Assembly (NCBI GenBank): GCA_963773095.1
Contig: CAVYZY010000012.1
Span: forward strand, 123,130-187,129
Source: an uncultured Gemmatimonadales bacterium
GTDB taxonomy: Bacteria > Gemmatimonadota > Gemmatimonadetes > Gemmatimonadales > GWC2-71-9
Direction of reading: 5' to 3'
DNA: 64,000 nt
This document shows, in pieces, positions 2,604 through 16,191 of this stretch (its first letter is position 1; the number at the start of each line of letters is the position of its first letter). The notes beneath the pieces were generated by a model that was not told the origin of the DNA, ran no database searches, and worked only from the letters and a program-made list of their open reading frames with translations. A program made the translations under genes and the position numbers.

Positions 2604-3923
2604 ATGCGCTCCCTTCGTGCGACCGTGGTCGCATCATTGCTTGCCGCCTCGCCCCTCGTGGCCCAGGCGCCGACCCTCGTCCCCCCGGGACCGCTCACCC
2701 TCGACGAGGCGATGCGGTGGGCCTGGCAGCGCGGAGTGGCTGCCTCGGTTGCGCGGCTCAATGCCGACGTGGCCCAGTCGCGCGTCGGCCAGCGCCGCGC
2801 CGACCTGCTGCCGCAGGTACAGGGCGAGGCGAACTACTCGCGCCAGACGCTCAACCTCGATGAGTTCGGCATCCCGATCGCCACCGGCGTCACTGCGCCA
2901 TTCAACCTGTATCACTTCCGCCTCGCCGGCTCGCAGTCACTGGTCAACTTCGCCGCGATGACCCGGGTGCAGTCCGCGTCCGACTCATCGGTCGCGGCGA
3001 CGTTCGACGCGCAGTCTACCGGGAGCAATGCCGCGGCGGTGGCCGGGGTCGCGTACGTGCGGGTCCTGGGCATCGGCGAGACGATCCGCGCGCGCGTGGC
3101 CGACAGCGTGATTGCCGCCGACCTGCTGTCGCAGGCCCGCCAGCTCGCCGATGCCGGCATCAGCGCCGCAATCGACGTCACCCGCAACGAGGTCAACCTC
3201 GGCGCCGTGCGCACCCAACTGGTCGTTACCCGGAACCTGCTGTCGCGCGCCCGGCTCGACCTGGCCCGCGCCCTGAGCCTGCCGCCGGAATCGTCGATCG
3301 AACTGGCCGATTCCCTCGGCCAGGAGGACCAGCGCCTGCCCACCGACCAGGACTCGGCGGTGGCCTTTGCGAAGGATCATCGACCCGAGGTGCTGGCCGA
3401 GCAGCGCCGCACCGAGGCGGTGCGCCTCAGCCGGCGCGCGGTCGGGCAGGAGAACCTGCCCAGCGCCGGCATCGCAGGGTCGGCGCAGGAGAGCGGACAG
3501 CAGACGGACGGGCTCGCCGGAACCTGGGCCGTCCAGGTCGGGATCTCGGTGCCGATCTTCGACGGACTGCGGAGGCAGAAGCGCCGGGACGAGCAGAGCG
3601 CGCGCTACGACGCGCAGAAGCTCCGCGAGTACGACGTGACCCAGCAGGTGGACGCCGAGGCACGACAGGTCGTGCTCGACCTCGCCGCCGCCCGTGAAGA
3701 GCTCCTGGTGGCGCAGCAGCGCCTCCACCTCGCCGATCTCGAGCTCAAGCAGGCGGATGAACGTGTCTCGGCGGGTGTCGCCGGCAGCGTCGAGACGACC
3801 AATGCGCAACGCAACCTCGTGGGCGCGCGAGACGCGCTCATCCAGGCCCGGGTTTCCCTGGACATCGCCCGGATCAATTCATACCGCGCGCTCGGCGTCA
3901 TCGTGCCCGCGAACAGCCAGTGA
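2604..3923 (+). CDS. TolC-family outer membrane efflux protein
   Basis: 439 aa. Signal peptide (LLAASPLVAQAP), LTLDEAMRWA start and two coiled-coil repeat halves typical of OMF/TolC. Starts 2 nt after the tetR stop. Confidence 0.85.
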   Translation: MRSLRATVVASLLAASPLVAQAPTLVPPGPLTLDEAMRWAWQRGVAASVARLNADVAQSRVGQRRADLLPQVQGEANYSRQTLNLDEFGIPIATGVTAPFNLYHFRLAGSQSLVNFAAMTRVQSASDSSVAATFDAQSTGSNAAAVAGVAYVRVLGIGETIRARVADSVIAADLLSQARQLADAGISAAIDVTRNEVNLGAVRTQLVVTRNLLSRARLDLARALSLPPESSIELADSLGQEDQRLPTDQDSAVAFAKDHRPEVLAEQRRTEAVRLSRRAVGQENLPSAGIAGSAQESGQQTDGLAGTWAVQVGISVPIFDGLRRQKRRDEQSARYDAQKLREYDVTQQVDAEARQVVLDLAAAREELLVAQQRLHLADLELKQADERVSAGVAGSVETTNAQRNLVGARDALIQARVSLDIARINSYRALGVIVPANSQ

Positions 3924-3953
3924 CGCACCGTACTTGCACAGCGAGCCCCGATC

Positions 3954-5066
3954 ATGACTGACGTGCTGACCGACATCCCACCGGCTGCTCCAGCCCGCAC
4001 GGCATCCGCGTCGGGGCCCGAGCCCGCAACCCGTGCGGAGCGGGTTCGACTCGTAGTCATCCTGCTCGTGGTCGCCGCCGCCGCCACGTGGGGCATCCGG
4101 ACCTGGCTCGCCAGCCGGCTCGTGGTGACCAGCGACAATGCGCAGGTGGATGGCCACATCACGCCCATCGCGCCCAAGGTGCAGGCGTTCGTGAGCCGCG
4201 TGCTGGTGGAGGACAATCAGCAGGTGAAGGCCGGGGACACCCTGGTGGTACTCGACGCGCGCGACCTGCAGCTCCGTCTGGAGCAGGCCCGCGCCGACCT
4301 CGCCTCGGCCCGGGCGCAGGCGGGCAGCGGTCGCGACGCGGGCCAGGCCGCAGCGCAGCTGGCCGCCACGCAGGCGCAGGCCGCCGGTGCGGAGGCCACC
4401 GTTGCGGCCGCGGAAGCGGCAGCGCGGAAGGCGAGTGCCGACCTCGAACGCTACCGCGGGCTCGCCGCCACCAAGGTCATCGCCGCGCAGCAGCTCGATG
4501 CCGCGCAGGCCGCCAACGATGCGGCGATCGCCAACGTCGACGCGGCGCGGCGGCAGGCCACCGCGGCGAGGAGCCAGGTGGCCGCGTCCGCCGCGGCGCT
4601 CAAGGGCGCCGGTGCGCGACTGGCGGCCGCCGAGGCGGCGGTCGGCACCGCCGAGACCCAGGTGGGATATACGGTGATCACGGCACCCATCGGCGGCATC
4701 GTCGCGCACCGCCGGGTCGAGCCCGGTGAGCTGGTGCAGCCGGGACAGGCCCTGCTCTCGATCGTGCCGTCCACCAATGTCTGGGTTACCGCGAACCTGA
4801 AGGAGACCGAGCTGCAGTACGTGAAGGTCGGTGACCCGGTCGAGTTCACCGTCGATGCGTACCGCGGCATCCGGTTCAAGGGCACCGTGGAGTCGCTCAG
4901 CCCGGCCACGGGAGCGCGCTTCGCGCTGCTCCCGCCCGACAACGCGAGCGGCAACTTCACCAAGGTCGTGCAGCGCCTCCCGGTGCGCATCGCGGTACCG
5001 ACGGAGGACCCGGCGCATCCGCTGCGGCCCGGCATGTCCGTCGACGTGAGGATCCGGGTGCGGTAG
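3954..5066 (+). CDS. HlyD/EmrA-family membrane fusion protein
   Basis: 370 aa. N-terminal TM, then TSDNAQVDGHITPIAPKVQAFVSRVLVEDNQQVKAGDTLVVLD (EmrA-like lipoyl motif), a long Ala/Gln-rich coiled coil and a C-terminal beta-barrel. Confidence 0.9.
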   Translation: MTDVLTDIPPAAPARTASASGPEPATRAERVRLVVILLVVAAAATWGIRTWLASRLVVTSDNAQVDGHITPIAPKVQAFVSRVLVEDNQQVKAGDTLVVLDARDLQLRLEQARADLASARAQAGSGRDAGQAAAQLAATQAQAAGAEATVAAAEAAARKASADLERYRGLAATKVIAAQQLDAAQAANDAAIANVDAARRQATAARSQVAASAAALKGAGARLAAAEAAVGTAETQVGYTVITAPIGGIVAHRRVEPGELVQPGQALLSIVPSTNVWVTANLKETELQYVKVGDPVEFTVDAYRGIRFKGTVESLSPATGARFALLPPDNASGNFTKVVQRLPVRIAVPTEDPAHPLRPGMSVDVRIRVR

Positions 5067-5077
5067 CCCACAGCAGC

Positions 5078-6664
5078 ATGGCCATCGCGGCACTCCCCCT
5101 TCGCCTGGAGCGATCGGAAGCGGAGGTCTACCGGCACCGGTACCTCATCGCCTTCGCGGTCACGCTCGCCAGCGTCCTCGAGCTCGTCGACACGAGCATC
5201 GTGAACGTGGCCATCCCGCACATGATGGGGAACCTCGGCGCGACGCTGGAGGAAGTGGCGTGGGTCAGCACCGGCTACATCGTGGCCAACGTCATCATCC
5301 TGCCGCTCACGCCCTGGCTCGCGGCGCGCTTCGGGAGGCGGAACTACTACACCGGCTCCATCATCCTCTTTACCGTCGCCTCCTTCTTCTGCGGCAACGC
5401 ACGCAGCCTCGAGGCGCTGGTCTTCTGGCGGGTCATCCAGGGCATCGGCGGCGGCGCGCTCATCTCGACGGCGCAGGCCATCCTGTTCGACGTCTTCCCG
5501 CTGAAGGAGCGCGGCACGTCGACCGCGATCTTCGGCATGGGCGTCATGGTAGGCCCGGCGCTGGGCCCCACGCTGGGCGGCTGGATCACCGACAACTACT
5601 CCTGGCCCTGGATCTTCTACATCAACATCCCGCTGGGCATCCTGGCAGCGTACCTCACCTGGTCGTACGTGCCGGAACCGAGGTACCAGGTGCAGCAGGA
5701 CCGCGGCGTCGACTGGCTGGGGCTGCTCTTCCTCATCATGGGCGTTGGAGCGCTGCAGATCCTCCTCGAGCGCGGTGAGTCGAAGGACTGGTTCGAGTCG
5801 ACCGAGATCATCACCGAGACCGTCATTGCGGCGATCGGCATGATCGCCTTCGTATGGCACGAGCTGACCACGGAGAACCCGATGGTGAAACTGCGCGTAC
5901 TCCGGCGCCGGCAACTCGCTGTCGGGGTGGTGTTCGCCAGCATCCTCGGGTTTGCGCTCTACTCCAGCGTCTTCGCATTGCCGGTGTTCCTGCAGAACTA
6001 CCTCGGCTTCAGTGCGTGGGACACCGGCCGCGTGCTCCTTCCCGGTGCCATTGCCACCGCGGTGACGATGGCGGTGGTCGGCAGGATGGCGAACAAGGTC
6101 GACGTGCGGCCGATCATCTTCGCCGGCGTGGTGCTCTTTGCCCTCTCGATGCGGCTGCACTCGCACTTCACACTCGAGACCGGCCAAGTCGACCTGTTCT
6201 GGCCCATGATCCTCCGCGGTATCGGGATGGGGCTCATTTTCGTGCCCCTCACCGGCCTCGCCGTGGCCGGCCTCGCGCCCTCGGACATTCCGCAGGGCAC
6301 TGGCCTCTACAACCTGAGCCGGCAGCTCGGCGGAAGCTTCGGTATCGCCATCACCGCGACCATCCTGACGCACTTCCGGGAGGAGAGCCGCGAGGCGCTG
6401 CGTGCGCACGTCACGATGTACGACCAGACCACCCGCAGCTGGCTCGACATGGTGACGCAGCGCATGCTGAGCGAAACCGGCAGCCTCGTGAGCGCGCAGC
6501 AGAAGGCGCAGGCGATGCTGGCCCGGGTCATCGAGGGCCAGGCGGCCGTCATCTCCTTCGAGAAGGTCTTCTTCATCATGGGAGCGGCGTTCCTGCTGGC
6601 CACCCCGCTGCTGCTCCTGTTCAAGACGGGCCGCGTGAGCGGCGGGGGCGGCGCGGCGCACTAG
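5078..6664 (+). CDS. MFS DHA2 (EmrB/QacA) 14-TM drug efflux transporter
   Basis: 528 aa. LASVLELVDTSIVNVAIPHMMGNLGA and WLAARFGRRNYY match EmrB-family signatures. Confidence 0.9.
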   Translation: MAIAALPLRLERSEAEVYRHRYLIAFAVTLASVLELVDTSIVNVAIPHMMGNLGATLEEVAWVSTGYIVANVIILPLTPWLAARFGRRNYYTGSIILFTVASFFCGNARSLEALVFWRVIQGIGGGALISTAQAILFDVFPLKERGTSTAIFGMGVMVGPALGPTLGGWITDNYSWPWIFYINIPLGILAAYLTWSYVPEPRYQVQQDRGVDWLGLLFLIMGVGALQILLERGESKDWFESTEIITETVIAAIGMIAFVWHELTTENPMVKLRVLRRRQLAVGVVFASILGFALYSSVFALPVFLQNYLGFSAWDTGRVLLPGAIATAVTMAVVGRMANKVDVRPIIFAGVVLFALSMRLHSHFTLETGQVDLFWPMILRGIGMGLIFVPLTGLAVAGLAPSDIPQGTGLYNLSRQLGGSFGIAITATILTHFREESREALRAHVTMYDQTTRSWLDMVTQRMLSETGSLVSAQQKAQAMLARVIEGQAAVISFEKVFFIMGAAFLLATPLLLLFKTGRVSGGGGAAH

Positions 6665-6737: not shown

Positions 6738-8264
6738 ATGACGTTCCAGCAGAAACTGCTCCTCGGCTTCGGGCTCATGGTGCTCCCGGTGCTGCTCGTG
6801 GGCGCCGAGGCGATCCGCAGCAATGCCCTCGAGCGCCGGGCCCTGGAGACCCTGGGCGAGAGCCTCACGCGGACCCGGACCTACTCCGAGGTCGAGACGG
6901 CAATGTTCAACCAGAGCGAGGTGATCTGGCGTTCGCTGAGCGGCATGGAGCCGCGCGCGCGCGCGGAATTCCGGCTCAGCGGCGAGGTGGTGGACTACTG
7001 GCTCGACCGCTGGACCGCGGAACTGCAGCCGGATGAGCAGGAGCTCGCCGTGGGCGTGCGGCGCATCGAGACGGAGATCCGCACGGTGGCCGACAGCGTG
7101 TTCGCACTCGAGGACCTGGGCAAGCGCGCGGAAGCGTACACGCTGGCCAAGGGGCAGCTCAAGGAGCGGCTGCTGCCGGCCCTCACCGAACTGAACCACC
7201 AGATCTACCGGCGCGCACGCGAGTTCAGCGTCTCCCGCGCGTTCAGCCGCGTGGCCGAGATCGTGAACAGCGAGCGTACCCTGCTCTTCTGGATCCTGCT
7301 GCTCTCGGTGGCGGCCGGGTTCGGCGGCGCGTGGCTCATCGCGCGCAGCCTCGCGCGCCCCATCGGCGAGCTGCGCCAGGCCATGACTGTAGTGGGCGGC
7401 GGCGATCTCGATCACCCGATCACCCCGCGTTCGGGCGACGAGATCGGCGACCTCGCGCGAAGCTTCCAGCAGATGACGGCCAACCTGCGGCAATCACGCA
7501 CCGAGTTGGTGCACCTCAACGCGGAACTGGGGGCCAAAGTCGGCCAGCTCCAGGCGGCGCAGGCACAGCTGGTGGAGCAGGAGAAGCTCGCGTCCGTGGG
7601 CCAGATGGCCGCGGGCGTGGCCCATGGCCTCCGCAATCCACTGGCGAGCCTTCGCGCGTCCGCCCAACTTGCGCTGCGACATCCCGAAACACCCGCGGCC
7701 CGGGAGTCGCTCGAGTCGATGATCAGCGAGGTGGACCGCCTCGACAAGCGCATCACGCACCTGCTCACCTTCTCGCGCCCGGCACCGCTGCACCCGATGC
7801 GCGAGAACCTGGCGACGCTCGTGGCGGGACTCCTGCCCGCCCTCAACCGCCTCCTGCAGGACCGGGCGGTCACCTTGCGCACCGACCTGCCCCAGGACCT
7901 TCCCGACACCATGCTCGATCCGATGAAGGTGGAGCAGACGATGCACGAACTCATCGCCAACGCCCTCGACGCGATGCCGGGCGGTGGCACGCTGGGACTG
8001 GCCGCGCGCGCGAGCGCCGACAGCAGCCGGGTGATCGTGGAGATTTCCGACACCGGGAAGGGCATCCCCGAGGACGTCCTGCCATCGGTGTGCGACCCGT
8101 TCTTCACCACGCGGCCCGAGGGCACCGGCCTGGGGCTCGCGATCGCCAAGCGGTTTGTGGAGCAGAATGGCGGCACGCTGGAGATCAGCAGCACACCCGG
8201 CCGGGGCACCACGGTGCGAATCCATTTTCCGTCCGCCCCCACCGCAAACGGAGGGCACGCATGA
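6738..8264 (+). CDS. Sensor histidine kinase (two TM segments, periplasmic loop, HAMP, HisKA, HATPase)
   Basis: 508 aa. HAMP region (RPIGELRQAMTVVGGGDLDHPI...IGDLARSFQQM), H-box LASVGQMAAGVAHGLRNPL, G1 DTGKGI and G2 GTGLGL. Confidence 0.9.
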   Translation: MTFQQKLLLGFGLMVLPVLLVGAEAIRSNALERRALETLGESLTRTRTYSEVETAMFNQSEVIWRSLSGMEPRARAEFRLSGEVVDYWLDRWTAELQPDEQELAVGVRRIETEIRTVADSVFALEDLGKRAEAYTLAKGQLKERLLPALTELNHQIYRRAREFSVSRAFSRVAEIVNSERTLLFWILLLSVAAGFGGAWLIARSLARPIGELRQAMTVVGGGDLDHPITPRSGDEIGDLARSFQQMTANLRQSRTELVHLNAELGAKVGQLQAAQAQLVEQEKLASVGQMAAGVAHGLRNPLASLRASAQLALRHPETPAARESLESMISEVDRLDKRITHLLTFSRPAPLHPMRENLATLVAGLLPALNRLLQDRAVTLRTDLPQDLPDTMLDPMKVEQTMHELIANALDAMPGGGTLGLAARASADSSRVIVEISDTGKGIPEDVLPSVCDPFFTTRPEGTGLGLAIAKRFVEQNGGTLEISSTPGRGTTVRIHFPSAPTANGGHA

Positions 8265-9652
8265 GCGGCGGCACGATTCTGGTCGTCGACGACGAGCGCA
8301 CCCTCGCCCGCGCCATCCGGGGTTACCTGGCGGAGGCGGGCTATGAAGTCGAGGTGGCGGGCAACGCCGAGCAGGCGCTCGAGATGCTCGATCGACTGCG
8401 CCCCGACGTCGTCTTCACCGACGTGAAGCTGCCGGGAATGAGCGGCATCGACCTGCTGCGGAAGATCCGCGAGTTCGACGCCGCCATTTCCGTCTGCGTC
8501 ATGACGGCGTTCGGCACGATCGAGGGAGCGGTTGAGGCGGTGAAGCTCGGGGCGTTCGACTACATCAAGAAGCCGATCGACCTCGAGGAAGTGAGATTGC
8601 TCGCCGACCGCGCGCGCGAAACCTCGCAGCTGCGCCAGGAGCTGTCATACTACCGGAAGAAGGCGGCCAACGATGTCGTCATCACCGGCATCGTCGGCAC
8701 GTCCCCCGCCATGAAGGCCGTGATGGAGCGGGCCCGCCAGATCGCGGCACTCGACGAGACGCCGCCCGTGCTCATTACCGGCGAGACGGGCACCGGCAAG
8801 GGACTGGTCGCGCGCACGATCCACTCATCAGGGGCACGTGGCAGCCGGCCGTTCATCGACGTTAACTGTACGGCGCTCCCTGCCACCCTGATGGAAGCCG
8901 AGCTCTTCGGGTACGAGCGCGGCGCATTCACCGATGCCAAGGAGTCCAAGCTCGGTCTCTTCGAGGCCGCCGAGGGCGGCTTCCTCTTCCTGGATGAAGT
9001 GGGCGACATCGAGCTGGCACTGCAGGGAAAGCTGCTGCGGGCCATCGAGGACCGCACCGTGCGCCGGGTGGGCGGCATCCGGGACCGCAAGATCGACGTG
9101 CGTATCCTGGCGGCCACCAATCGCGACCTCGAGCAGGACGCCCGGCACGACCGGTTCCGGAAGGATCTCTACTTCCGGCTCGCCGTCATCCTCCTGCGGC
9201 TGCCGCCGCTCCGTGAGCGCGGCGACGACATCCCCATGCTCGCCGATCACTTCCTCAAGCACTACAGTGCGAAGTACGGCCGGGATGTTCGCCAGATCAA
9301 CGCGCAGGCCCGCGACCTCATGCGCGCCTATCCCTGGCCCGGCAACGTGCGCGAGCTGAGCCACGTCATCGAGCGCGCGGTCCTCTGGAGCCAGGGCGAC
9401 ACTCTCGACGTCGAGCACCTGTCGCTGAGCACGCCGACCACCGCCGCCCCCACCGCGGTGCCGGCCGCGCCCGGTGCGGCTGCAGCCAGCCCGGCCCCCG
9501 CCGACCCCCTGGATCTCACACAGTGGGAACGAACCCTCATTGAACGCGCGCTCTCGGAGTCGGGCGGCAACCAGACCAAGGCAGCTCAATTGCTCGGAAT
9601 CACCCGGGACACGCTCCGGTATCGGTTGAAGAAGTTCGGTATGGGTGGGTGA
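8261..9652 (+). CDS. Sigma-54-dependent response regulator (NtrC family enhancer-binding protein)
   Basis: True start is the ATG at 8261, overlapping the kinase stop (ATGA). The track ORF 7331-9652 has an out-of-frame-overlap artefact N-terminus. Receiver domain (ILVVDDE...FTDVKLPGMSG), AAA+ Walker A GETGTGKG, sigma-54 contact loop ERGAFTDA (GAFTGA variant) and C-terminal Fis-type HTH AAQLLGITRDTLRYRLKK. Confidence 0.92.
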   Translation: MSGGTILVVDDERTLARAIRGYLAEAGYEVEVAGNAEQALEMLDRLRPDVVFTDVKLPGMSGIDLLRKIREFDAAISVCVMTAFGTIEGAVEAVKLGAFDYIKKPIDLEEVRLLADRARETSQLRQELSYYRKKAANDVVITGIVGTSPAMKAVMERARQIAALDETPPVLITGETGTGKGLVARTIHSSGARGSRPFIDVNCTALPATLMEAELFGYERGAFTDAKESKLGLFEAAEGGFLFLDEVGDIELALQGKLLRAIEDRTVRRVGGIRDRKIDVRILAATNRDLEQDARHDRFRKDLYFRLAVILLRLPPLRERGDDIPMLADHFLKHYSAKYGRDVRQINAQARDLMRAYPWPGNVRELSHVIERAVLWSQGDTLDVEHLSLSTPTTAAPTAVPAAPGAAAASPAPADPLDLTQWERTLIERALSESGGNQTKAAQLLGITRDTLRYRLKKFGMGG

Positions 9653-9673
9653 GAGCACCCACCCGGGTGGGTG
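9643..9673. promoter_or_regulatory. Triple 9-mer element GGGTGGGTG-agag-CACCCACCC-GGGTGGGTG; either a terminator hairpin for the two-component operon or an activator binding site (UAS)
   Basis: Perfect 9-bp inverted repeat with a 4-nt loop that overlaps the regulator stop codon (9650-9652). A third direct copy follows immediately. A degenerate copy GGTGGGTGgcaaCACCCAACC lies at 9831-9851. Confidence 0.5.
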
Positions 9674-9781: not shown

Positions 9782-9797
9782 CGGCACGACACCTGCC
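9782..9797 (+). promoter_or_regulatory. Sigma-54 (-24/-12) promoter upstream of pqqA
   Basis: CGGCACGacacCTGCC has GG and GC at exactly the consensus spacing of TGGCACG-N4-TTGCW. It lies about 107 nt upstream of the pqqA ATG and about 130 nt downstream of the palindrome at 9643. Confidence 0.6.
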
Positions 9798-9903
9798 ATA
9801 GTAGGGGCTGCGCCGGGAATGCACTCCCCCGGTGGGTGGCAACACCCAACCTATTTGTGAGGGCCGCGTGCAGGCCCAATTACCTCAGAGAACTGGAGCT
9901 ACC

Positions 9904-9978
9904 ATGCGTTGGACCAAGCCCGAGGCCGAGATCGTCGCCGTTACGATGGAAGTCACCGCTTACGTCGCGACCCTGTAA
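9904..9978 (+). CDS. pqqA: PQQ precursor peptide PqqA (24 aa)
   Basis: Not in the ORF track (too short). ATG at 9904 preceded by GGAG. Translation is MRWTKPEAEIVAVTMEVTAYVATL, with the conserved W-x-K-P start and the E-x-x-x-Y (EVTAY) cross-link pair. It sits directly upstream of pqqB. Confidence 0.88.
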   Translation: MRWTKPEAEIVAVTMEVTAYVATL

Positions 9979-9991
9979 GCAGCAGGACTGA

Positions 9992-10028
9992 CGCCGAGGG
10001 CTCGCGCAAGCGGGCCCTCGGCGCTTTT
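9992..10028 (+). terminator. Intrinsic terminator/attenuator hairpin between pqqA and pqqB
   Basis: CGCCGAGGGC (9992-10001) pairs with GCCCTCGGCG (10014-10023), followed by CTTTTCC. Confidence 0.65.
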
Positions 10029-10032
10029 CCAG

Positions 10033-10941
10033 GTGCAAGTCATACTGCTGGGAACGGCTGCAGGTGGCGGATTCCCGCAGTGGAATTGCTGGTGTCCCAC
10101 CTGTCGTGCTGCGCGCCTCGATCCTCGTTCGGCCCTTCCCCGATCCCAGTCATCGGCCGCCATCAGCGCCGACGGCGAGCACTGGTTCCTCCTCAACGCG
10201 TCGCCCGATGTGCGCGACCAGGTGCAGCAGCTCAACGGTCACGCGCCGGCAGGCAATCGCCACGTCCCGATCGAGGGTGTCGTCCTTACCGATGCGGAAC
10301 TGGATCACTCGCTCGGCCTGGTGCTCCTGCGGGAAGGCCGGTCGCTCCACCTGTATGCCACGGAAGCGGTCGAGCGCATGGTTACCGAGGACTCGCGGCT
10401 CCTTTCCGTGGCCAGGGCATTCGCCGATGTCCGCGTGACGCGACTGCAGGTCGGCTCCGCCACGGCCTTGACGCTGCGCGACGGCACCGATGCCGGCCTC
10501 CTCGTGGAGCCGTTCGTCGTGGCCGCCGATCCGCCGCGGTTCGCCGCGCATACGGAGGCGGGCCACACCGTCGGGCTGATCATCACCGAGCTGGAAACGG
10601 GGAAGCGCTGCGCGTACTTGCCCGGCTGCGGGGCCATCGACCACGCGTTACTTTCGCGACTCAAGAACGCGGAACTGGTGCTTTTCGACGGTACCTTCTG
10701 GTCCAACGATGAACTGATCACGCTGGGCATCGGCGAACGCACTGCCCTGCAGCTCGATCACCTGCCGATGAGCGGCAGTGAGGGCAGCCTCGAGCGCCTG
10801 CGCGCCTTGCCAAGCCGGCATCGCGTCTACGTTCATATCAACAACACGAACCCGGTACTGCTGGAGGACTCCGCGGAACGTCGCGCGGTCGAGGCAGCCG
10901 GGCTGATCATCGGGATGGACGGCATGAGGTTCGACATATGA
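10033..10941 (+). CDS. pqqB: PQQ biosynthesis protein PqqB (metallo-beta-lactamase fold)
   Basis: 302 aa, GTG start. MQVILLGTAAGGGFPQWNCWCPTC... is the characteristic PqqB N-terminus. Position between pqqA and pqqC supports the call. Confidence 0.92.
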   Translation: MQVILLGTAAGGGFPQWNCWCPTCRAARLDPRSALPRSQSSAAISADGEHWFLLNASPDVRDQVQQLNGHAPAGNRHVPIEGVVLTDAELDHSLGLVLLREGRSLHLYATEAVERMVTEDSRLLSVARAFADVRVTRLQVGSATALTLRDGTDAGLLVEPFVVAADPPRFAAHTEAGHTVGLIITELETGKRCAYLPGCGAIDHALLSRLKNAELVLFDGTFWSNDELITLGIGERTALQLDHLPMSGSEGSLERLRALPSRHRVYVHINNTNPVLLEDSAERRAVEAAGLIIGMDGMRFDI

Positions 10942-11567
10942 GCACCCGCAATCATCGCATGTGGGCCATCGCGCTCATGCTGTGCCTGGCCGCCACGTCG
11001 GTGGCGGCGCAGGACGCGCGGGGTGCCGTCATGGAACCGCCAACTGCCCCGGTCGCCGTCCTGCCCGTGGCGCTCTACACCGGGCAGGCGAACGTGCAGG
11101 AAGCGACCGACACCGCCATGGCGGCGCTCGCGGACTCGATCCTGACCCGCAAGCTCGCCGAACTGCTGGGAGACCAGCTGATCCCGCCGCCGCAGACGGC
11201 TGCTGCCGCTGTTGCGCGCGGTGACGCCTCCTGTAACGCCGTCGTGGCATGCGCACGGGCAGTGGCTCAGTCGGCCGGCGCGCGGTGGGTCGTGATGGCG
11301 AAGGTGAGCAAGACGAGTAACCTGATCTGGCTCCTGACCGGGCAGCTGACCCACGTGTCGGATGGCAAGATCGTGCTGGACGACTCGACCGAGCTCAAAG
11401 GCGAGCCCGGTGGCATGATACGCGCCGGTACCCGCATCTTCGCGGAACGCGTGGCGCGCACCGTGCGCGCGGGCGGCGTCACCACCAACTTCCCGATTGG
11501 TGCCCCTGAGGCAGCCAACTTCCCGATTGGTGCCCCTGAGGCAGCCAACACCCCGGCAGGCTCATGA
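10938..11567 (+). CDS. Hypothetical secreted/periplasmic protein inserted between pqqB and pqqC
   Basis: 209 aa. Start ATG overlaps the pqqB stop (ATGA) and its stop overlaps the pqqC ATG (ATGA). Signal peptide MWAIALMLCLAATSVAA-QD, CX5C motif (SCNAVVAC) and a C-terminal duplicated decapeptide NFPIGAPEAA. Confidence 0.7.
   Translation: MSTRNHRMWAIALMLCLAATSVAAQDARGAVMEPPTAPVAVLPVALYTGQANVQEATDTAMAALADSILTRKLAELLGDQLIPPPQTAAAAVARGDASCNAVVACARAVAQSAGARWVVMAKVSKTSNLIWLLTGQLTHVSDGKIVLDDSTELKGEPGGMIRAGTRIFAERVARTVRAGGVTTNFPIGAPEAANFPIGAPEAANTPAGS
11487..11546 (+). repeat. Perfect 30-bp tandem duplication inside the pqq-embedded ORF
   Basis: aacttcccgattggtgcccctgaggcagcc occurs twice back to back (11487-11516 and 11517-11546), encoding NFPIGAPEAA twice. 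Confidence 0.95.
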
Positions 11568-12316
11568 TGACTGAAACGCTCGTTGCCTCGGAACTGGCTT
11601 CCGCCCCCCGCGGCGCCATCCCCGTCCTGGACCGCCCCCTGAGCCCGTCAGAGCTCGAGGCGGCGCTGCGGGCCTTCCAGAGCTCGTACTACGTCGAGCA
11701 TCCATTCCACCGCGACATGTACGCCGGCAAGCTCACGCCGCGGCAGTTCCAGGGCTGGGTGGCCAACCGGCTCGCGTACCAGCGCGTGGTGCCACGCAAG
11801 GACGCGGCGATCCTTTCCAACTGTCCTGATCCGGCGGTACGCCGTGAGTGGATCCAGCGCATCGTCGATCATGATGGAACGCGCGAGGGCGAGGGCGGGA
11901 TCGAGTTGTGGATCCGCCTGGGTGTTGCGCTCGGCGTGCCCCGCGAGGAAATGGACGACGAGCGGCACGTGCTGCCGTCGGTGCGGCTGATCTGCGAATC
12001 GTACGTCTGGTTCTGCAAGTCGAAGCCGTGGGTGCAGGCCTGCGCCTCATCGCTCACCGAGCTGTTTGCGCCGAAGATCCACCAGCAGCGCATCGAGTCG
12101 TTCCCGGTCCACTATCCCTGGATCCCGCCCGAGGCGCTCGACTATTTCAAGAGCCGCCTGGTGCAGGCGCCCCGGGACGTGAAGCACGGCCTGTCCATCG
12201 TGCAGCAGCACTGCACCACGGTGGAAACCCAGCGCATGGCGTTCGAGGCGCTGGCGTTCAAGCTGGAGATGCTCTGGGCCATGATCGACACGATCTACCA
12301 TGCTTACCGCGACTAG
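11564..12316 (+). CDS. pqqC: Pyrroloquinoline-quinone synthase PqqC
   Basis: 250 aa. LSPSELEAALRAFQSSYYVEHPFHRDMYAGKLTPRQFQGWVANRLAYQ... matches PqqC-family sequence. Operon context supports the call. Confidence 0.92.
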   Translation: MMTETLVASELASAPRGAIPVLDRPLSPSELEAALRAFQSSYYVEHPFHRDMYAGKLTPRQFQGWVANRLAYQRVVPRKDAAILSNCPDPAVRREWIQRIVDHDGTREGEGGIELWIRLGVALGVPREEMDDERHVLPSVRLICESYVWFCKSKPWVQACASSLTELFAPKIHQQRIESFPVHYPWIPPEALDYFKSRLVQAPRDVKHGLSIVQQHCTTVETQRMAFEALAFKLEMLWAMIDTIYHAYRD

Positions 12317-12587
12317 CGTGCCGTCGCTCTGGCGCCTGGCGCGCGTCGAGTACGACGACGTGCGCAAGCGGCCCGTGCTCCTCTATCCAGAGGGCGCGGT
12401 GCTGCTCAATGACACCGGCGCCGCCATCCTCAAGCTGGTGGACGGGCAGCGCAGCGTGGGCGACATCGCCCGCATGCTGAGTGAGCAGTACACCGGGGCC
12501 GGCAGCGCCGACCCGACCGAGATCCTCAACGACGTGACGACCTATCTCGCCACTCTGGCCGCCCGGGAGCTGATTCGTGACCAGTGA
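12300..12587 (+). CDS. pqqD: PQQ biosynthesis peptide chaperone PqqD
   Basis: 95 aa. Typical PqqD sequence (PVLLYPEGAVLLNDTGAAILKLVDGQRSVGDIARML). Overlaps pqqC by 17 nt. Confidence 0.9.
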   Translation: MLTATSVPSLWRLARVEYDDVRKRPVLLYPEGAVLLNDTGAAILKLVDGQRSVGDIARMLSEQYTGAGSADPTEILNDVTTYLATLAARELIRDQ

Positions 12588-13668
12588 ACGTCCCACCACG
12601 CTGCTGGCGGAGCTGACGCATCGTTGCCCGCTGCATTGTCCCTACTGCTCCAATCCGCTCGACCTGGTGCGCGTGGAGCGCGAAATCTCCACCGAGGACT
12701 GGAAACGGGTCATCACCGAGGCACGGGCGCTGGGCGTGCTCCAGCTCGGCCTGTCGGGTGGCGAGCCGCTGGTGCGGAAGGACACCGAGGAACTCGCCGC
12801 GCATGCGCGGAGCGTGGGCCTCTACAGCACCCTCGTCACCTCCGGGCTCGGGCTCACCCGCCCGAGGGCCGAGAAGTTCCGCGAGGCCGGGCTCGAGCAC
12901 ATCCAGATCTCGCTGCAGGATGCCGACGACGACAACGCGGAGCGGATCGCCGGGGTGCGCTCGGTGAAGCAGAAGCGCGCGGCGGCGGCACTGGTGCGCG
13001 AGCTCGGCTTCGCCTTCTCGGTGAACGTAGTGCTGCACAAAGCCAACCTCGATCGCATCCAGCAGATCATCGACCTCGCGAGCGAGATGGGGGCCGACCG
13101 GCTCGAGCTGGCCAACACCCAGTACTACGGCTGGGGGCTGCTCAACCGCGACGCGCTCATGCCCACCCGGGAGCAGGTCGATCGTGCCTTCGAGGTCGCC
13201 GAGCGGGCGAAGCAGGCCCATCGCGGCAAGATGCAGATCATCTTCGTGCTGCCGGACTACTACGAGGAATATCCCAAGGCCTGCTACGGCGGCTGGGGCA
13301 AGGTGTACCTCGTGGTGACGCCCGACGGGAAGGTGCTGCCCTGTCATGGCGCCACGAACATCACGACGTTCGCGTACCCGAACGTGCGCGAGCATTCGAT
13401 GGAGTGGATCTGGCAGGAGTCGCCGCTGTTCAATGCCTTCCGCGGCGACAGCTGGATGAAGTCGCCTTGCTCCACCTGCGAGCGGAAGTGCGTCGACTTT
13501 GGCGGTTGCCGCTGCCAGGCCTTCGCGCTCACCGGTGACGCGGCCATGGCCGACCCGATCTGCACCCTGAGCCCGCACCACCACCTCATCGAGTCGGCGC
13601 TCGCCGACGCGAACGCGACCACGCCATTCACCTACCGCAAGCTGTCGAGCGAGCCGCAGCCAGCGTGA
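12577..13668 (+). CDS. pqqE: PqqA peptide cyclase PqqE (radical SAM/SPASM)
   Basis: 363 aa. LLAELTHRCPLHCPYCSNP carries the CxxxCxxC radical-SAM motif. C-terminal SPASM cysteines (CSTCERKCVDFGGCRCQA). Overlaps pqqD by 11 nt. Confidence 0.93.
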   Translation: MTSERPTTLLAELTHRCPLHCPYCSNPLDLVRVEREISTEDWKRVITEARALGVLQLGLSGGEPLVRKDTEELAAHARSVGLYSTLVTSGLGLTRPRAEKFREAGLEHIQISLQDADDDNAERIAGVRSVKQKRAAAALVRELGFAFSVNVVLHKANLDRIQQIIDLASEMGADRLELANTQYYGWGLLNRDALMPTREQVDRAFEVAERAKQAHRGKMQIIFVLPDYYEEYPKACYGGWGKVYLVVTPDGKVLPCHGATNITTFAYPNVREHSMEWIWQESPLFNAFRGDSWMKSPCSTCERKCVDFGGCRCQAFALTGDAAMADPICTLSPHHHLIESALADANATTPFTYRKLSSEPQPA

Positions 13669-14594
13669 GCGCGGCGGCCGTCGCGGCCGTCGGACTCGGC
13701 CGCGACTACGGCAGTACGCGCGCGCTCGACGGCCTCACCCTGCGTGTTGACCCCGGCGAACTGGTTGGCCTGCTCGGGCCGAACGGCGCCGGCAAGACCA
13801 CGGCGATGCTGCTGCTCGCAACCCTGCTGCGCCCGACCCGCGGCCGCGCCGAGGTCTTCGGGCAGGACGTGGTGCAGGCACGGCGCGCAGCCCGGCAGCG
13901 ACTGGGGCTCGTCTTCCAGGAACCCACCGTCGATCCCTTCCTCACCGTTCGCGAGAACCTCGAGTTTGCCGCTGCCCTTTCCGGGCTCGACCGCCGGCAA
14001 GCGCGCGACGCGATTGCGCTGGCGCTCACGCGCATGAGGCTCGAGCCCTTCGCCGACCGTCGCGCCCGCGAACTCTCCGGCGGATGGCGGCGACTCGCCG
14101 ACATTGCCCGCGCCACGCTCCACGCCCCCAGTCTGCTGATCCTGGATGAACCGACGGTGGGGCTCGACCCGGAGCATCGCGCCGCGCTCTGGGGTTTCCT
14201 GGAGACACTGCGACGGGACCAGGGCACCGCGGTGCTCTTTTCGACCCATTACCTGGCCGAGGCGGAGAGTGCGGACAGCGTCGTGCTCTTGGCCGGGGGC
14301 ATGGTGGTCGAGCGTGGCTCGCCGGCGGCACTGATGCGGCCGTTCGGCACGGCGTTGCTCGAGGTGGAAGGGCCAGGTGTCGACCGGCTCGTGGCCGCCA
14401 TCGAGGAGCGGCAGCTCGCGACGCTCATCGTGCGCACGCCGGCGGGATGCCGCATCGGGCTCGATGCCCACCACGATCATGCGCTCGAACTCGCCGGGTC
14501 GCATCCGGGGATCAGTCGCGCGCTCCTCCGGAGCCCGAGCCTCGAGGACGTCTACTTCGCGCGCACCGCCCCGGCGCAGGGGCGGCCCGCATGA
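13665..14594 (+). CDS. ABC transporter ATP-binding protein (ABC-2/DrrA-like exporter ATPase)
   Basis: 309 aa. GTG start overlaps the pqqE stop (GTGA). Walker A GPNGAGKTT, signature LSGGWRR, Walker B LLILDEPT. Confidence 0.9.
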   Translation: MSAAAVAAVGLGRDYGSTRALDGLTLRVDPGELVGLLGPNGAGKTTAMLLLATLLRPTRGRAEVFGQDVVQARRAARQRLGLVFQEPTVDPFLTVRENLEFAAALSGLDRRQARDAIALALTRMRLEPFADRRARELSGGWRRLADIARATLHAPSLLILDEPTVGLDPEHRAALWGFLETLRRDQGTAVLFSTHYLAEAESADSVVLLAGGMVVERGSPAALMRPFGTALLEVEGPGVDRLVAAIEERQLATLIVRTPAGCRIGLDAHHDHALELAGSHPGISRALLRSPSLEDVYFARTAPAQGRPA

Positions 14595-15382
14595 TCGCGC
14601 TCAGTGCCATCGGCGGCATCGTGCAGCGCGACCTGCGCCGCGCCGCCCGTCAGCCGAGCCGCCTCATCGGCGGCCTGGCCCGGCCCTTCGTGTGGTTGTT
14701 GCTGGTGGCGAGTGGTTACAACGCGATCGCGAACCCCGGCACCGGCAGCTCGTACCAGCAGTTCGTCTTCCCCGGCGTGATCGTGATGGCCTGCCTGTTC
14801 GGCTCGGCCCTCACCGCGGTGTCCACGGTGTACGATCGCGAGTTCGGGATGCTGCGGCTCATGCTCGCGAGTCCCGCCGGGCCGGCGGTGGTGCTGGCGG
14901 GACGGGCGCTCTCGGCCGCGGCTGTTGGACTGCTTCAGGGGCTGGTGGTACTGGCGGCGGCACCGTTCGTCATGCGAATCACGTGGGGTCAGGCCGGCGC
15001 TGCGACCACGGCCGTACTGCTCGCGTCGTGCGTCTCGGCGCTGCTCGGCCTGCTGGTGGCGGCGCGGCTCCGGTCAGTGGAAAACTTTGCCGGAATCATC
15101 AACGTGCTGCTGTTTCCCATGCTGTTCATCAGCGGCGCGCTCTATCCGGCGAGCGGGCTCCCGCCGGTGCTCCGGTGGATCGCCCGCGTGAACCCGGTGA
15201 CGCACATGGTGGAACTGGTCCGCGCAGCGCTGGGCCAGCCGACCGAGCTATCCGTGACGGGCAACCTGCTCGCCCTCGCGGCCTTCTCCGTGGCCGCTTT
15301 CCTGCTGGCGTCGCTGCTGTTCGATCCGGAGCAGCGCCTGGTCGGACGGCCGCCGAGCGCTCGCGGCGCGTCCGGACGCTAG
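14591..15382 (+). CDS. ABC-2 type transporter permease
   Basis: ATG at 14591 overlaps the ATPase stop (ATGA). About 263 aa with 6 predicted TM segments. RDLRRAARQPSRLIGGLARPFVWLLL is a typical ABC-2 permease N-terminus. Confidence 0.85.
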   Translation: MIALSAIGGIVQRDLRRAARQPSRLIGGLARPFVWLLLVASGYNAIANPGTGSSYQQFVFPGVIVMACLFGSALTAVSTVYDREFGMLRLMLASPAGPAVVLAGRALSAAAVGLLQGLVVLAAAPFVMRITWGQAGAATTAVLLASCVSALLGLLVAARLRSVENFAGIINVLLFPMLFISGALYPASGLPPVLRWIARVNPVTHMVELVRAALGQPTELSVTGNLLALAAFSVAAFLLASLLFDPEQRLVGRPPSARGASGR

Positions 15383-16191
15383 GGTTCGGTGAAGAGCGAC
15401 GGGGGACAGGTTCCGGGTGGCGGGTCGGCCCTCCGTTCGAGAACGATCTGCTGCTCCACCAGTGACCGCGCCGGGCTGCGGATGGCACCGCCCACCGGCA
15501 CGCTCGCCTCCACCGTGACGTCATGGTCATAGCGCACGGGACCGCGCACCGGATCCCAGGCGGCGATGCCACGATCGTTGAGGGTACGGGTGTATGTCGG
15601 CGTCAGCGTGTCGCCGGCCGGCGGGGAAACGGTACCCTCGCGAATGATCTGGACGCGGTAGCGCTGCAGGCTCGCGCTGTCGCTCAGCCGCTTGATCGCG
15701 AGGCTGTCGCCGCTCCGCCACTCCTCGCCGGCCTGCAGCACCCGCGGCGGCAGGCGTGGCAGCATGTCGTCGAGGGCGCTCGACAGATCGGTCACTTCGC
15801 GCACGGCTCCGGGAACGAACGGAACGACGTGAGTTGTCAGCGCGCCGTCCGGCAGGATCTCACCGCGGTAGTGTCCGCCGAGGACACCGGAGGCATCGGG
15901 CTCGACGCGGTCGCCGCCAGCGCTGCGCCAGACGCGCAGCGAATCAAACCAGGCGACGTACTCGAGTGAGGGGCTGGAGGACGAGGCCAGCGTCGCAAGG
16001 ATGAGGTCGCTGTCGCGGCCGGAGTTGGCGGTTGCCGTGCGGCCGGCGGTCTGGAGCGTGAGGTCGCTGCGAACGCTCGCGCGAAACCGGGCACAGGCGA
16101 GTTGCGTGGCAGTGTAGTCCGGTGCGGACTGCGCCGCGAGCGGTACACTCGTGGCGAGCAGGATCGCCGACCGCGCGAACGCTCTCCTCAC
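15379..16191 (-). CDS. Hypothetical secreted protein
   Basis: 270 aa. Signal peptide MRRAFARSAILLATSVPLAAQS. No family recognised. Last gene of the minus-strand wtpA-like/pruA string. Confidence 0.55.
   Translation of the reverse strand: MRRAFARSAILLATSVPLAAQSAPDYTATQLACARFRASVRSDLTLQTAGRTATANSGRDSDLILATLASSSSPSLEYVAWFDSLRVWRSAGGDRVEPDASGVLGGHYRGEILPDGALTTHVVPFVPGAVREVTDLSSALDDMLPRLPPRVLQAGEEWRSGDSLAIKRLSDSASLQRYRVQIIREGTVSPPAGDTLTPTYTRTLNDRGIAAWDPVRGPVRYDHDVTVEASVPVGGAIRSPARSLVEQQIVLERRADPPPGTCPPSLFTEP

Follow-up and report, generated by a model that had tools for sequence, protein, structure and literature searches.

The genes for the synthesis of pyrroloquinoline quinone (PQQ) in a 64-kb stretch of DNA from an uncultured Gemmatimonadales bacterium (contig CAVYZY010000012.1; the whole stretch is referred to here as the window) form an operon that ends with an ATP-binding cassette (ABC) ATPase and an ABC-2 permease. 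Both ABC genes belong to this PQQ biosynthesis operon as integral components and are co-translated with it. The best-supported reading of the pair is that it exports PQQ; we infer both the substrate and the direction of transport, and regard the reading as tentative. To our knowledge, no protein has been established for the membrane-crossing step of PQQ in any organism. ABC-2 exporters are a known class, and the pqqE-linked arrangement bears on the long-standing question of PQQ export, as the pair is a clonable exporter candidate that is kept fused to pqqE across three phyla.

The ABC Genes Are Part of the pqq Operon

Eight genes, pqqA-pqqB-orfX-pqqC-pqqD-pqqE-ABC ATPase-ABC-2 permease, occupy positions 9904–15382 of the plus strand of the window (Table 1), which has a G + C content of approximately 68%. 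An earlier note, made from the sequence alone, had described them as a single-strand string, and both the gene calls and the profile matches agree with that description. Each of the five proteins PqqA to PqqE scores above its NCBIfam equivalog cut-off and their genes are colinear, which by this test identifies a pqqABCDE operon. The permease and the ATPase match PF01061 and PF00005, respectively, with 115.7 bits each, above the gathering scores. The G + C content at third codon positions lies between 0.80 and 0.90 across all eight genes.

The reading frames overlap exactly as the note had claimed, by ATGA at 10938 and 11564, by 17 nt at 12300, by 11 nt at 12577, by GTGA at 13665 and by ATGA at 14591. 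It had also called the string free of terminators, and no terminator-like site was found from pqqB to the end of the permease gene. The attenuator-like hairpin between pqqA and pqqB (Table 1) does not conflict with this, since a hairpin at this place is usual in pqq operons. The mechanical open reading frame (ORF) of the permease opens at 14447, and the Pfam match begins at its residue 58. Counted from the ATG of the ATGA overlap at 14591, the match starts 10 residues in. Based on this position, the length of homologues (258–267 aa) and the best-fitting start of approximately 63 of 74 related loci, which lies in the same 4-nt overlap, we place the true start of the permease at 14591.

Linkage of the ABC Pair to pqqE in Its Permease Family

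We refer to the permease family of the window as clade T1. A GTDB scan with the permease alignment, at one genome per species, yielded 80 loci, from Gemmatimonadales and from four Acidobacteriota genomes, represented by metagenome-assembled genomes (MAGs; one Luteitalea, one Vicinamibacteria and two unclassified). A metagenome scan added 80 further loci, one of which shares its contig with a genome locus, giving 160 loci on 159 distinct contigs. Gene neighbors were called by tblastn with the window proteins.

The ATPase gene adjoins the permease gene in all 122 T1 loci with at least 900 nt of upstream DNA; five of these were flagged by the script solely owing to the overlap of the two genes. 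The earlier note had proposed examining the pqqE-ATPase-permease adjacency across genomes and phyla, and it is kept throughout: with the permease as query, so that the counts run from permease to pqqE, pqqE adjoins the pair in 97 of 97 T1 loci with at least 2.1 kb upstream, and in nine of nine cases in four deeper clades (see below). The genes pqqBCDE are present in 72/72 loci with at least 4.8 kb upstream. Of 74 genome loci, approximately 58 have a 4-nt overlap between pqqE and the ATPase gene, and approximately 63 have one between the ATPase and permease genes. In the four Acidobacteriota genome loci, the histidine kinase, activator, convergent secreted protein and pyrroline-5-carboxylate (P5C) dehydrogenase were not found around the operon, and the seven-gene core is kept.

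The genes of this core also diverged together. Over 69 loci, Mantel correlations (r) of the distances were 0.66 for PqqE and the permease, 0.72 for PqqE and the ATPase and 0.81 for PqqB and the permease. Overall, the values ranged from 0.51 to 0.81 between the ABC and pqq genes and from 0.68 to 0.76 among the pqq genes, and 0 of 500 permutations reached those observed. The ABC and pqq distances thus correlate like those of the pqq genes among themselves, suggesting that the cassette evolves as one unit.

Linkage in Deeper Clades

In a HMMER search of 1.8 billion representative proteins, clade T1 made up one or two clusters at 50% identity, followed by a gap, and the next relatives were at most 42% identical. 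A profile built from these relatives retrieved further members, whose genomic contexts were looked up. Their permeases, which form the clades T2 to T5, are 33–42% identical to that of the window. All nine T2–T5 permeases that were looked up (P0286, P0304, P0290, P0271, P0305, P0324, P0322, P0328 and P0280, the contig of the last beginning within the C-terminus of pqqE) sit directly 3′ of pqqE, mostly with 4-nt overlaps. The PqqE proteins of these operons are only 52–56% identical to the window PqqE, as distant as those of proteobacteria (44–56%). The one tested permease that has no pqq neighbors, P0148, falls outside T1–T5 in the tree.

Clades T2, T3 and part of T5 are labeled Gemmatimonadota, T4 is a Gaiellaceae MAG, in which the accessions of the ATPase and PqqE are consecutive, and the other part of T5 is an Actinomycetota MAG. 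The pqqE-ATPase-permease unit is thus seen in three phyla, the Gemmatimonadota, the Acidobacteriota (Vicinamibacteria) and the Actinomycetota (Gaiellaceae). Downstream neighbors vary by clade and include Yip1, superoxide dismutase, GntR and M19 and M55 peptidases. In a neighbor-joining tree with 200 bootstraps, T1, T2, T3, T4 and the Ped-type permeases (see below) are each recovered at 100%, and T4 with T5 at 96%. The branching between clades is weak, with T1 and Ped as sisters at 37% and all PQQ-associated clades together at 16%, so that this tree does not decide between a single and a multiple recruitment of the pair.

Variants were also seen in these clades. In a T2 locus (L171, 1030–1941), pqqB has been relocated upstream of the genes for the kinase and the activator, and pqqA, pqqC, pqqD, pqqE and the ABC pair remain together, suggesting that the link of pqqE to the pair is tighter than its link to pqqB. 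One further variant has a tandem-duplicated permease of 449 aa, and genes for M17, M19 and M55 peptidases adjoin the pqq-ABC operon (L170, 8001–9706 and 9720–10829; L168, 2300–3826; L174, 5849–6724). Since these operons have no pqqF/G, the peptidases are candidates for the proteases that trim PqqA.

Predicted Fold and Family of the ABC Pair

The AlphaFold2 model of the permease (mean predicted local distance difference test score of 82) comprises six transmembrane helices and an N-terminal interface helix, and its best Foldseek matches are KpsM, Wzm, NosY, ABCG and TarG (probability 1.0, template modeling scores of 0.53–0.68). Based on this model, the permease is predicted to have the type V ABC exporter fold. 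A sequence search against solved structures gave generic ABC matches only. By tblastn, neither a PedA1 binding protein, a PedA2 propeller, a SoxYZ-like carrier nor a zinc hydrolase was found within 10 kb of the 160 loci or in the window. The earlier note had taken ABC-2 systems of this kind to be typically exporters, and the predicted fold and the absence of a binding protein within 10 kb of these loci fit that view. The C39 peptidase and fused ABC-B transmembrane domain of the peptidase-containing ABC transporters (PCATs) that export RiPPs, peptides made by the ribosome and modified after translation, were not found in the pair.

The top NCBIfam matches of the window pair are TIGR03864 for the ATPase (227 bits, cut-off 302) and TIGR03861 for the permease (146 bits, cut-off 241), both below cut-off. 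The scores on the models for drrA (TIGR01188, 217 bits, cut-off 312) and DrrB (TIGR01247, 144 bits, cut-off 223) are about equal to these. On TIGR03864 and TIGR03861, four true Ped-type controls reach 311–345 bits with their ATPases and 353–421 bits with their permeases. The ATPases of T4 and T5 score 304 and 312.0 bits on drrA (cut-off 312.45) and 229–231 bits on the PedB model. A DrrA1-3_C domain is present in the T5 ATPase (36.5 bits, Pfam threshold 27.4); sub-threshold matches occur at the same position in T4 (18.6 bits) and in a T1 member, L076 (18.7 bits), and the window ATPase gave no match. The window ATPase is 309 aa long, whereas those of Ped systems have 237–253 aa.

As the scores fall below the cut-offs for both Ped and Drr, we assign the pair to a DrrAB-like ABC-2 subfamily without a curated name, outside Ped/Lut. 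Membership of the ped-type family, which had been raised in the note, was not borne out by the hidden Markov model (HMM) cut-offs, the partner genes or the ATPase architecture. No curated family model covers the pair, and source annotations are generic (e.g., ‘multidrug ABC transporter permease’).

Relation to Ped/Lut Systems

In proteobacterial plasmids, the permease finds its best relatives (37–40% identity) in Ped-type operons beside PQQ dehydrogenases. Besides a permease and a short ATPase, these operons encode a binding protein and a YVTN propeller, and they often lie 5–14 kb from a pqq operon. The PedA1A2BC system of Pseudomonas putida, which is required for lanthanide-dependent growth, and LutAEF of Methylorubrum resemble the window pair in combining an ABC-2 permease with a separate ATPase (approximately 44% identity for the ATPase) and in sitting in PQQ/quinoprotein gene islands. 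They differ from it in that they always come with a binding protein and a YVTN β-propeller and have the short ATPase, and in that their demonstrated role is lanthanide-dependent growth and uptake, not PQQ export.

An intermediate arrangement was found with a chimeric query, made of the C-terminus of PqqE and the N-terminus of the ATPase, in one plasmid among the best-scoring 5000 PLSDB records. On this plasmid of Variovorax boronicumulans (NZ_CP138497.1; L177, 5553–12513), a sigma-54 regulator and pqqBCDE are followed by a true Ped-type system; after pqqE come, in turn, the ATPase (with overlapping frames), the propeller, the binding protein and the permease. Such a gene order forms a bridge between the pqq-fused pairs and the Ped/Lut systems, and the whole transporter group is PQQ-associated.

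Export of PQQ and Alternative Functions

PQQ synthesis takes place in the cytoplasm, after which the cofactor is moved to the periplasm, and in the literature searched the transporter for this step is represented solely by a candidate list based on omics data; that literature held neither a description of an ABC pair in a pqq operon nor an established PQQ exporter. We favor export of PQQ by the pair because the linkage is strict and old, the architecture and predicted fold are those of an exporter, DrrAB offers an analogy, and no PQQ exporter has been established. In this model, the operon would be transcribed from a sigma-54 promoter and the two ABC genes would be translated in step with pqqE. 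A complex of two ATPase and two permease subunits would then export finished PQQ, the cytoplasmic product of PqqB/C/D/E, over the cytoplasmic membrane, and the exported PQQ would reach the compartment where apo-quinoproteins are loaded. The earlier note had suggested export of either PQQ or a by-product; the conserved linkage and the exporter features strengthen the proposal of export, PQQ as the substrate is what we infer, and the option of a PqqA remnant gained no specific support.

DrrAB is likewise a two-gene ABC-2 exporter without a binding protein that is encoded in the cluster making its substrate, and it shares the DrrA1-3_C domain at the ATPase C-terminus with T5 and, below threshold, with T4. 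Its substrate is an amphipathic anthracycline, whereas that of the pair would be a small hydrophilic tricarboxylate. The only established components of PQQ transport are PqqU, a TonB-dependent PQQ importer that is common in Gemmatimonadetes, and PqqT, a periplasmic PQQ-binding protein. They act in outer-membrane import or periplasmic binding, have an unrelated fold and work in the direction opposite to the proposed export.

Several points weigh against PQQ export. We know of no such ABC pair in the classical proteobacterial pqq operons. The pqq genes of Acinetobacter reportedly work in E. coli, as Goosen is said to have found in 1989, which suggests that a dedicated exporter is not universally required. 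PQQ carries three carboxylates, yet a comparison of 119 family members with 109 relatives revealed no family-specific basic or aromatic residue conserved in the membrane core; it returned only small or hydrophobic substitutions and, at the C-terminus, a conserved FDPExR motif that is uninformative. Growth that depends on lanthanides requires PedBC and LutEF, the closest characterized relatives, and loss of PedE-dependent growth was not reported for the mutant. In Acidobacteria and Gemmatimonadetes, xoxF3 clusters are reported to contain PedA2-like propellers. Partners of the pair could be encoded elsewhere in the genome. Finally, the fusion of a Ped system to pqqE in Variovorax means that adjacency to pqq genes alone cannot separate PQQ export from a role with lanthanides or in maturation.

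The main rival to PQQ export is a lanthanide or quinoprotein-maturation role like that of Ped/Lut. The pair would then be the core of a quinoprotein-associated transporter for a lanthanide or lanthanide chelate, with periplasmic partners encoded elsewhere, for example in xoxF clusters, and its co-expression with PQQ synthesis would be explained by the need of XoxF-type enzymes for both cofactors. The Ped-type systems beside PQQ dehydrogenases as nearest proteobacterial relatives of the permease, the Ped models as top NCBIfam matches, the lanthanide phenotype of PedA1A2BC and the Variovorax system directly 3′ of pqqE all speak for this role, as do the sister position of T1 and Ped, with a bootstrap of just 37%, and the XoxF3 clusters with a PedA2-like propeller, for which no ABC genes are mentioned. 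We nevertheless judge it unlikely. The pair scores far from the Ped cut-offs (227 against 302 bits, 146 against 241 bits) and about as high on DrrA/DrrB, the 10 kb around each of the 160 loci encode no binding protein or propeller, and the C-terminal domain of its ATPase is absent from PedB. It would also be unusual for an importer to lack a binding protein. Moreover, it is pqqE and not a dehydrogenase gene to which the pair is tied: the ORFs scanned over the 64-kb window were found to include no PQQ dehydrogenase, and such a gene lies beside the pair in some relatives (L015, L168, L170 and L173).

Less probable again is a role in detoxification or by-product export, in which the pump would clear a reactive intermediate, surplus redox-cycling quinone or PqqA fragments, much as DrrAB protects the anthracycline producer. 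The DrrA-like sequence and domain architecture of relatives and the location of the pair, which closes a biosynthetic cluster and is co-translated with pqqE, are consistent with such a role. If PQQ itself were the toxic species, it would be indistinguishable from PQQ export. The export of peptide by-products is opposed by the ABC-2 fold, which comes without a peptidase or peptide-recognition domain, and by the fate of peptide remnants, which are normally degraded by cytoplasmic peptidases.

A maturation machine like CcmAB or NosFY, in which ATP would be spent on handing the cofactor to apo-quinoproteins, or on releasing it, and not on bulk transport, appears slightly more doubtful still. ABC-2 systems dedicated to the assembly of periplasmic cofactors are an established precedent. 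CcmAB and NosFY share the type V fold with the pair and supply a cofactor to a periplasmic redox enzyme; NosY is among the best structural matches, and a subset of the family gives weak Pfam matches to CcmB (PF03379). These systems, however, work with conserved periplasmic or membrane partners (CcmC/E and NosD/L), no periplasmic equivalent of NosD or CcmC/E is conserved beside the pair, and its downstream neighbors differ among clades; the similarity is confined to the fold.

That the genes encode an unrelated drug-efflux pair merely beside the operon, as the ‘multidrug’ annotation of relatives might suggest, is very unlikely given the linkage in 97/97 and 9/9 cases, including clades with PqqE 52–56% identical, the conserved 4-nt overlaps, the co-divergence of ABC and pqq genes and a core that stays while the flanks change.

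In a broader form of the PQQ export reading, which we put forward with a little more reserve, the pair would be the missing cytoplasmic-membrane PQQ exporter and an old, fixed part of the pqq operons of Gemmatimonadota, Vicinamibacteria and Gaiellales-type Actinomycetota, beyond the classical models from proteobacteria, and the Ped/Lut systems would be relatives from the same PQQ-associated stock that gained a binding protein and propeller. The part concerning the origin of Ped/Lut is less certain than the exporter part. If confirmed, PQQ export by the pair would provide a handle for engineering PQQ overproduction. Thousands of soil-metagenome genes labeled as generic or ‘multidrug’ ABC transporters could gain a proper annotation, and the lanthanide-associated Ped/Lut transporters would gain evolutionary context.

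Promoter, Leader and Upstream Regulators

Table 1. Genes and regulatory features of the pqq operon and its upstream region in the window.
Feature	Position	Strand	Evidence and remarks
Sensor histidine kinase (HAMP-HisKA-HATPase)	6738–8264	+	Pfam; tblastn synteny
NtrC-type sigma-54 activator (receiver, sigma-54 AAA+, Fis helix-turn-helix)	8261–9652	+	Pfam
Palindrome GGGTG-N4-CACCC, copy 1	9647–9660	.	~125 nt upstream of promoter
Sigma-54-type promoter GGCAC-N5-CTGC (-24 GG / -12 GC)	9783–9796	+	~105–120 nt before pqqA
pqqA leader hairpin 1, conserved, 8 bp	9811–9832 (alignment A3 columns 62–86)	+	Compensatory changes
Palindrome GGGTG-N4-CACCC, copy 2 = leader hairpin 2 (9833–9848)	9834–9847		~40 nt downstream of promoter
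pqqA precursor peptide MRWTKPEAEIVAVTMEVTAYVATL	9904–9978	+	24 aa, E-x3-Y motif; TIGR02107 25.5 bits (cut-off 20)
G + C-rich hairpin then TTTT, attenuator-like, between pqqA and pqqB	9996–10019	+	Read from sequence
pqqB	10033–10941	+	TIGR02108 352 bits (cut-off 245)
orfX, secreted DUF3280 protein	10938–11567	+	Signal peptide; Pfam 41 bits (cut-off 30.1)
pqqC	11564–12316	+	TIGR02111 304 bits (cut-off 240)
pqqD	12300–12587	+	TIGR03859 70 bits (cut-off 46)
pqqE, radical SAM/SPASM	12577–13668	+	TIGR02109 525 bits (cut-off 381)
ABC ATPase, 309 aa: nucleotide-binding domain + ~75-aa C-terminal extension	13665–14594	+	PF00005
ABC-2 permease, 263 aa	14591–15382	+	PF01061

Upstream of the operon lie genes for a sensor histidine kinase and an NtrC-type activator (Table 1). 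The true start of the activator is at 8261, in an ATGA overlap with the stop codon of the kinase gene. The kinase gene precedes the operon in most Gemmatimonadales loci, and the activator was detected in 66 loci out of 160, a set in which many loci end before its gene. In the promoter, the GGCA and TGC elements are invariant among 49 aligned loci, and a promoter of the same type was found in clades T2 and T3 (L166, L167, L171 and L172). The Acidobacteriota loci have no sigma-54 promoter and carry TATAAT-like boxes instead. From these sequence features, the operon appears to depend on sigma-54.

The palindrome GGGTG-N4-CACCC has two matches in the window, both near the operon promoter, and in T2 loci it also occurs 3′ of the regulator gene. 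It is probably a binding site for the activator, instead of or besides forming an RNA hairpin. In leader hairpin 1, one pair reads UA in 19, CG in 13 and UG in 13 of the loci. Together with the palindrome helix, 95.7% of the cells are paired, compared with 29–50% when the 3′ partners are slid, and seven pairs of the leader helices are changed on both sides, compared with 2.2 in shuffles. An Rfam scan of the leader RNA gave no known family.

Genes Flanking the Operon and orfX

Convergent to the operon, on the minus strand, lies a gene for a secreted protein of 270 aa (15379–16191), which shares 4 nt with the 3′ end of the permease gene. This protein has no match in Pfam or NCBIfam. It was detected in 100 of the 160 T1 loci, all from Gemmatimonadales and with 33–77% identity, and in none of the four Acidobacteriota genome loci. 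Positions 2604–6664, directly upstream of the genes for the kinase and the activator, encode a tripartite efflux system that consists of an outer-membrane factor, a membrane-fusion protein and a major facilitator superfamily (MFS) pump. This system is kept at the same place in many Gemmatimonadales loci, in some of which the MFS gene is gone.

The OrfX protein carries a C-terminal tandem repeat, in which NFPIGAPEAA occurs twice. Its gene was found between pqqB and pqqC in the window and in loci L001 and L007 only, and is missing from nearly all related operons. A DUF3280 gene also lies within a quinoprotein island of a Roseomonas plasmid, beside a Ped-type ABC system (L165, 9872–10363), and another, in a different Gemmatimonadales genome, has unrelated surroundings (L176, 9001–9597). 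We considered orfX as a PQQ-specific gene and rejected this, given its near-absence from related operons and the unrelated context in the other Gemmatimonadales genome. On the same grounds, orfX is best viewed as a local, lineage-specific insertion.

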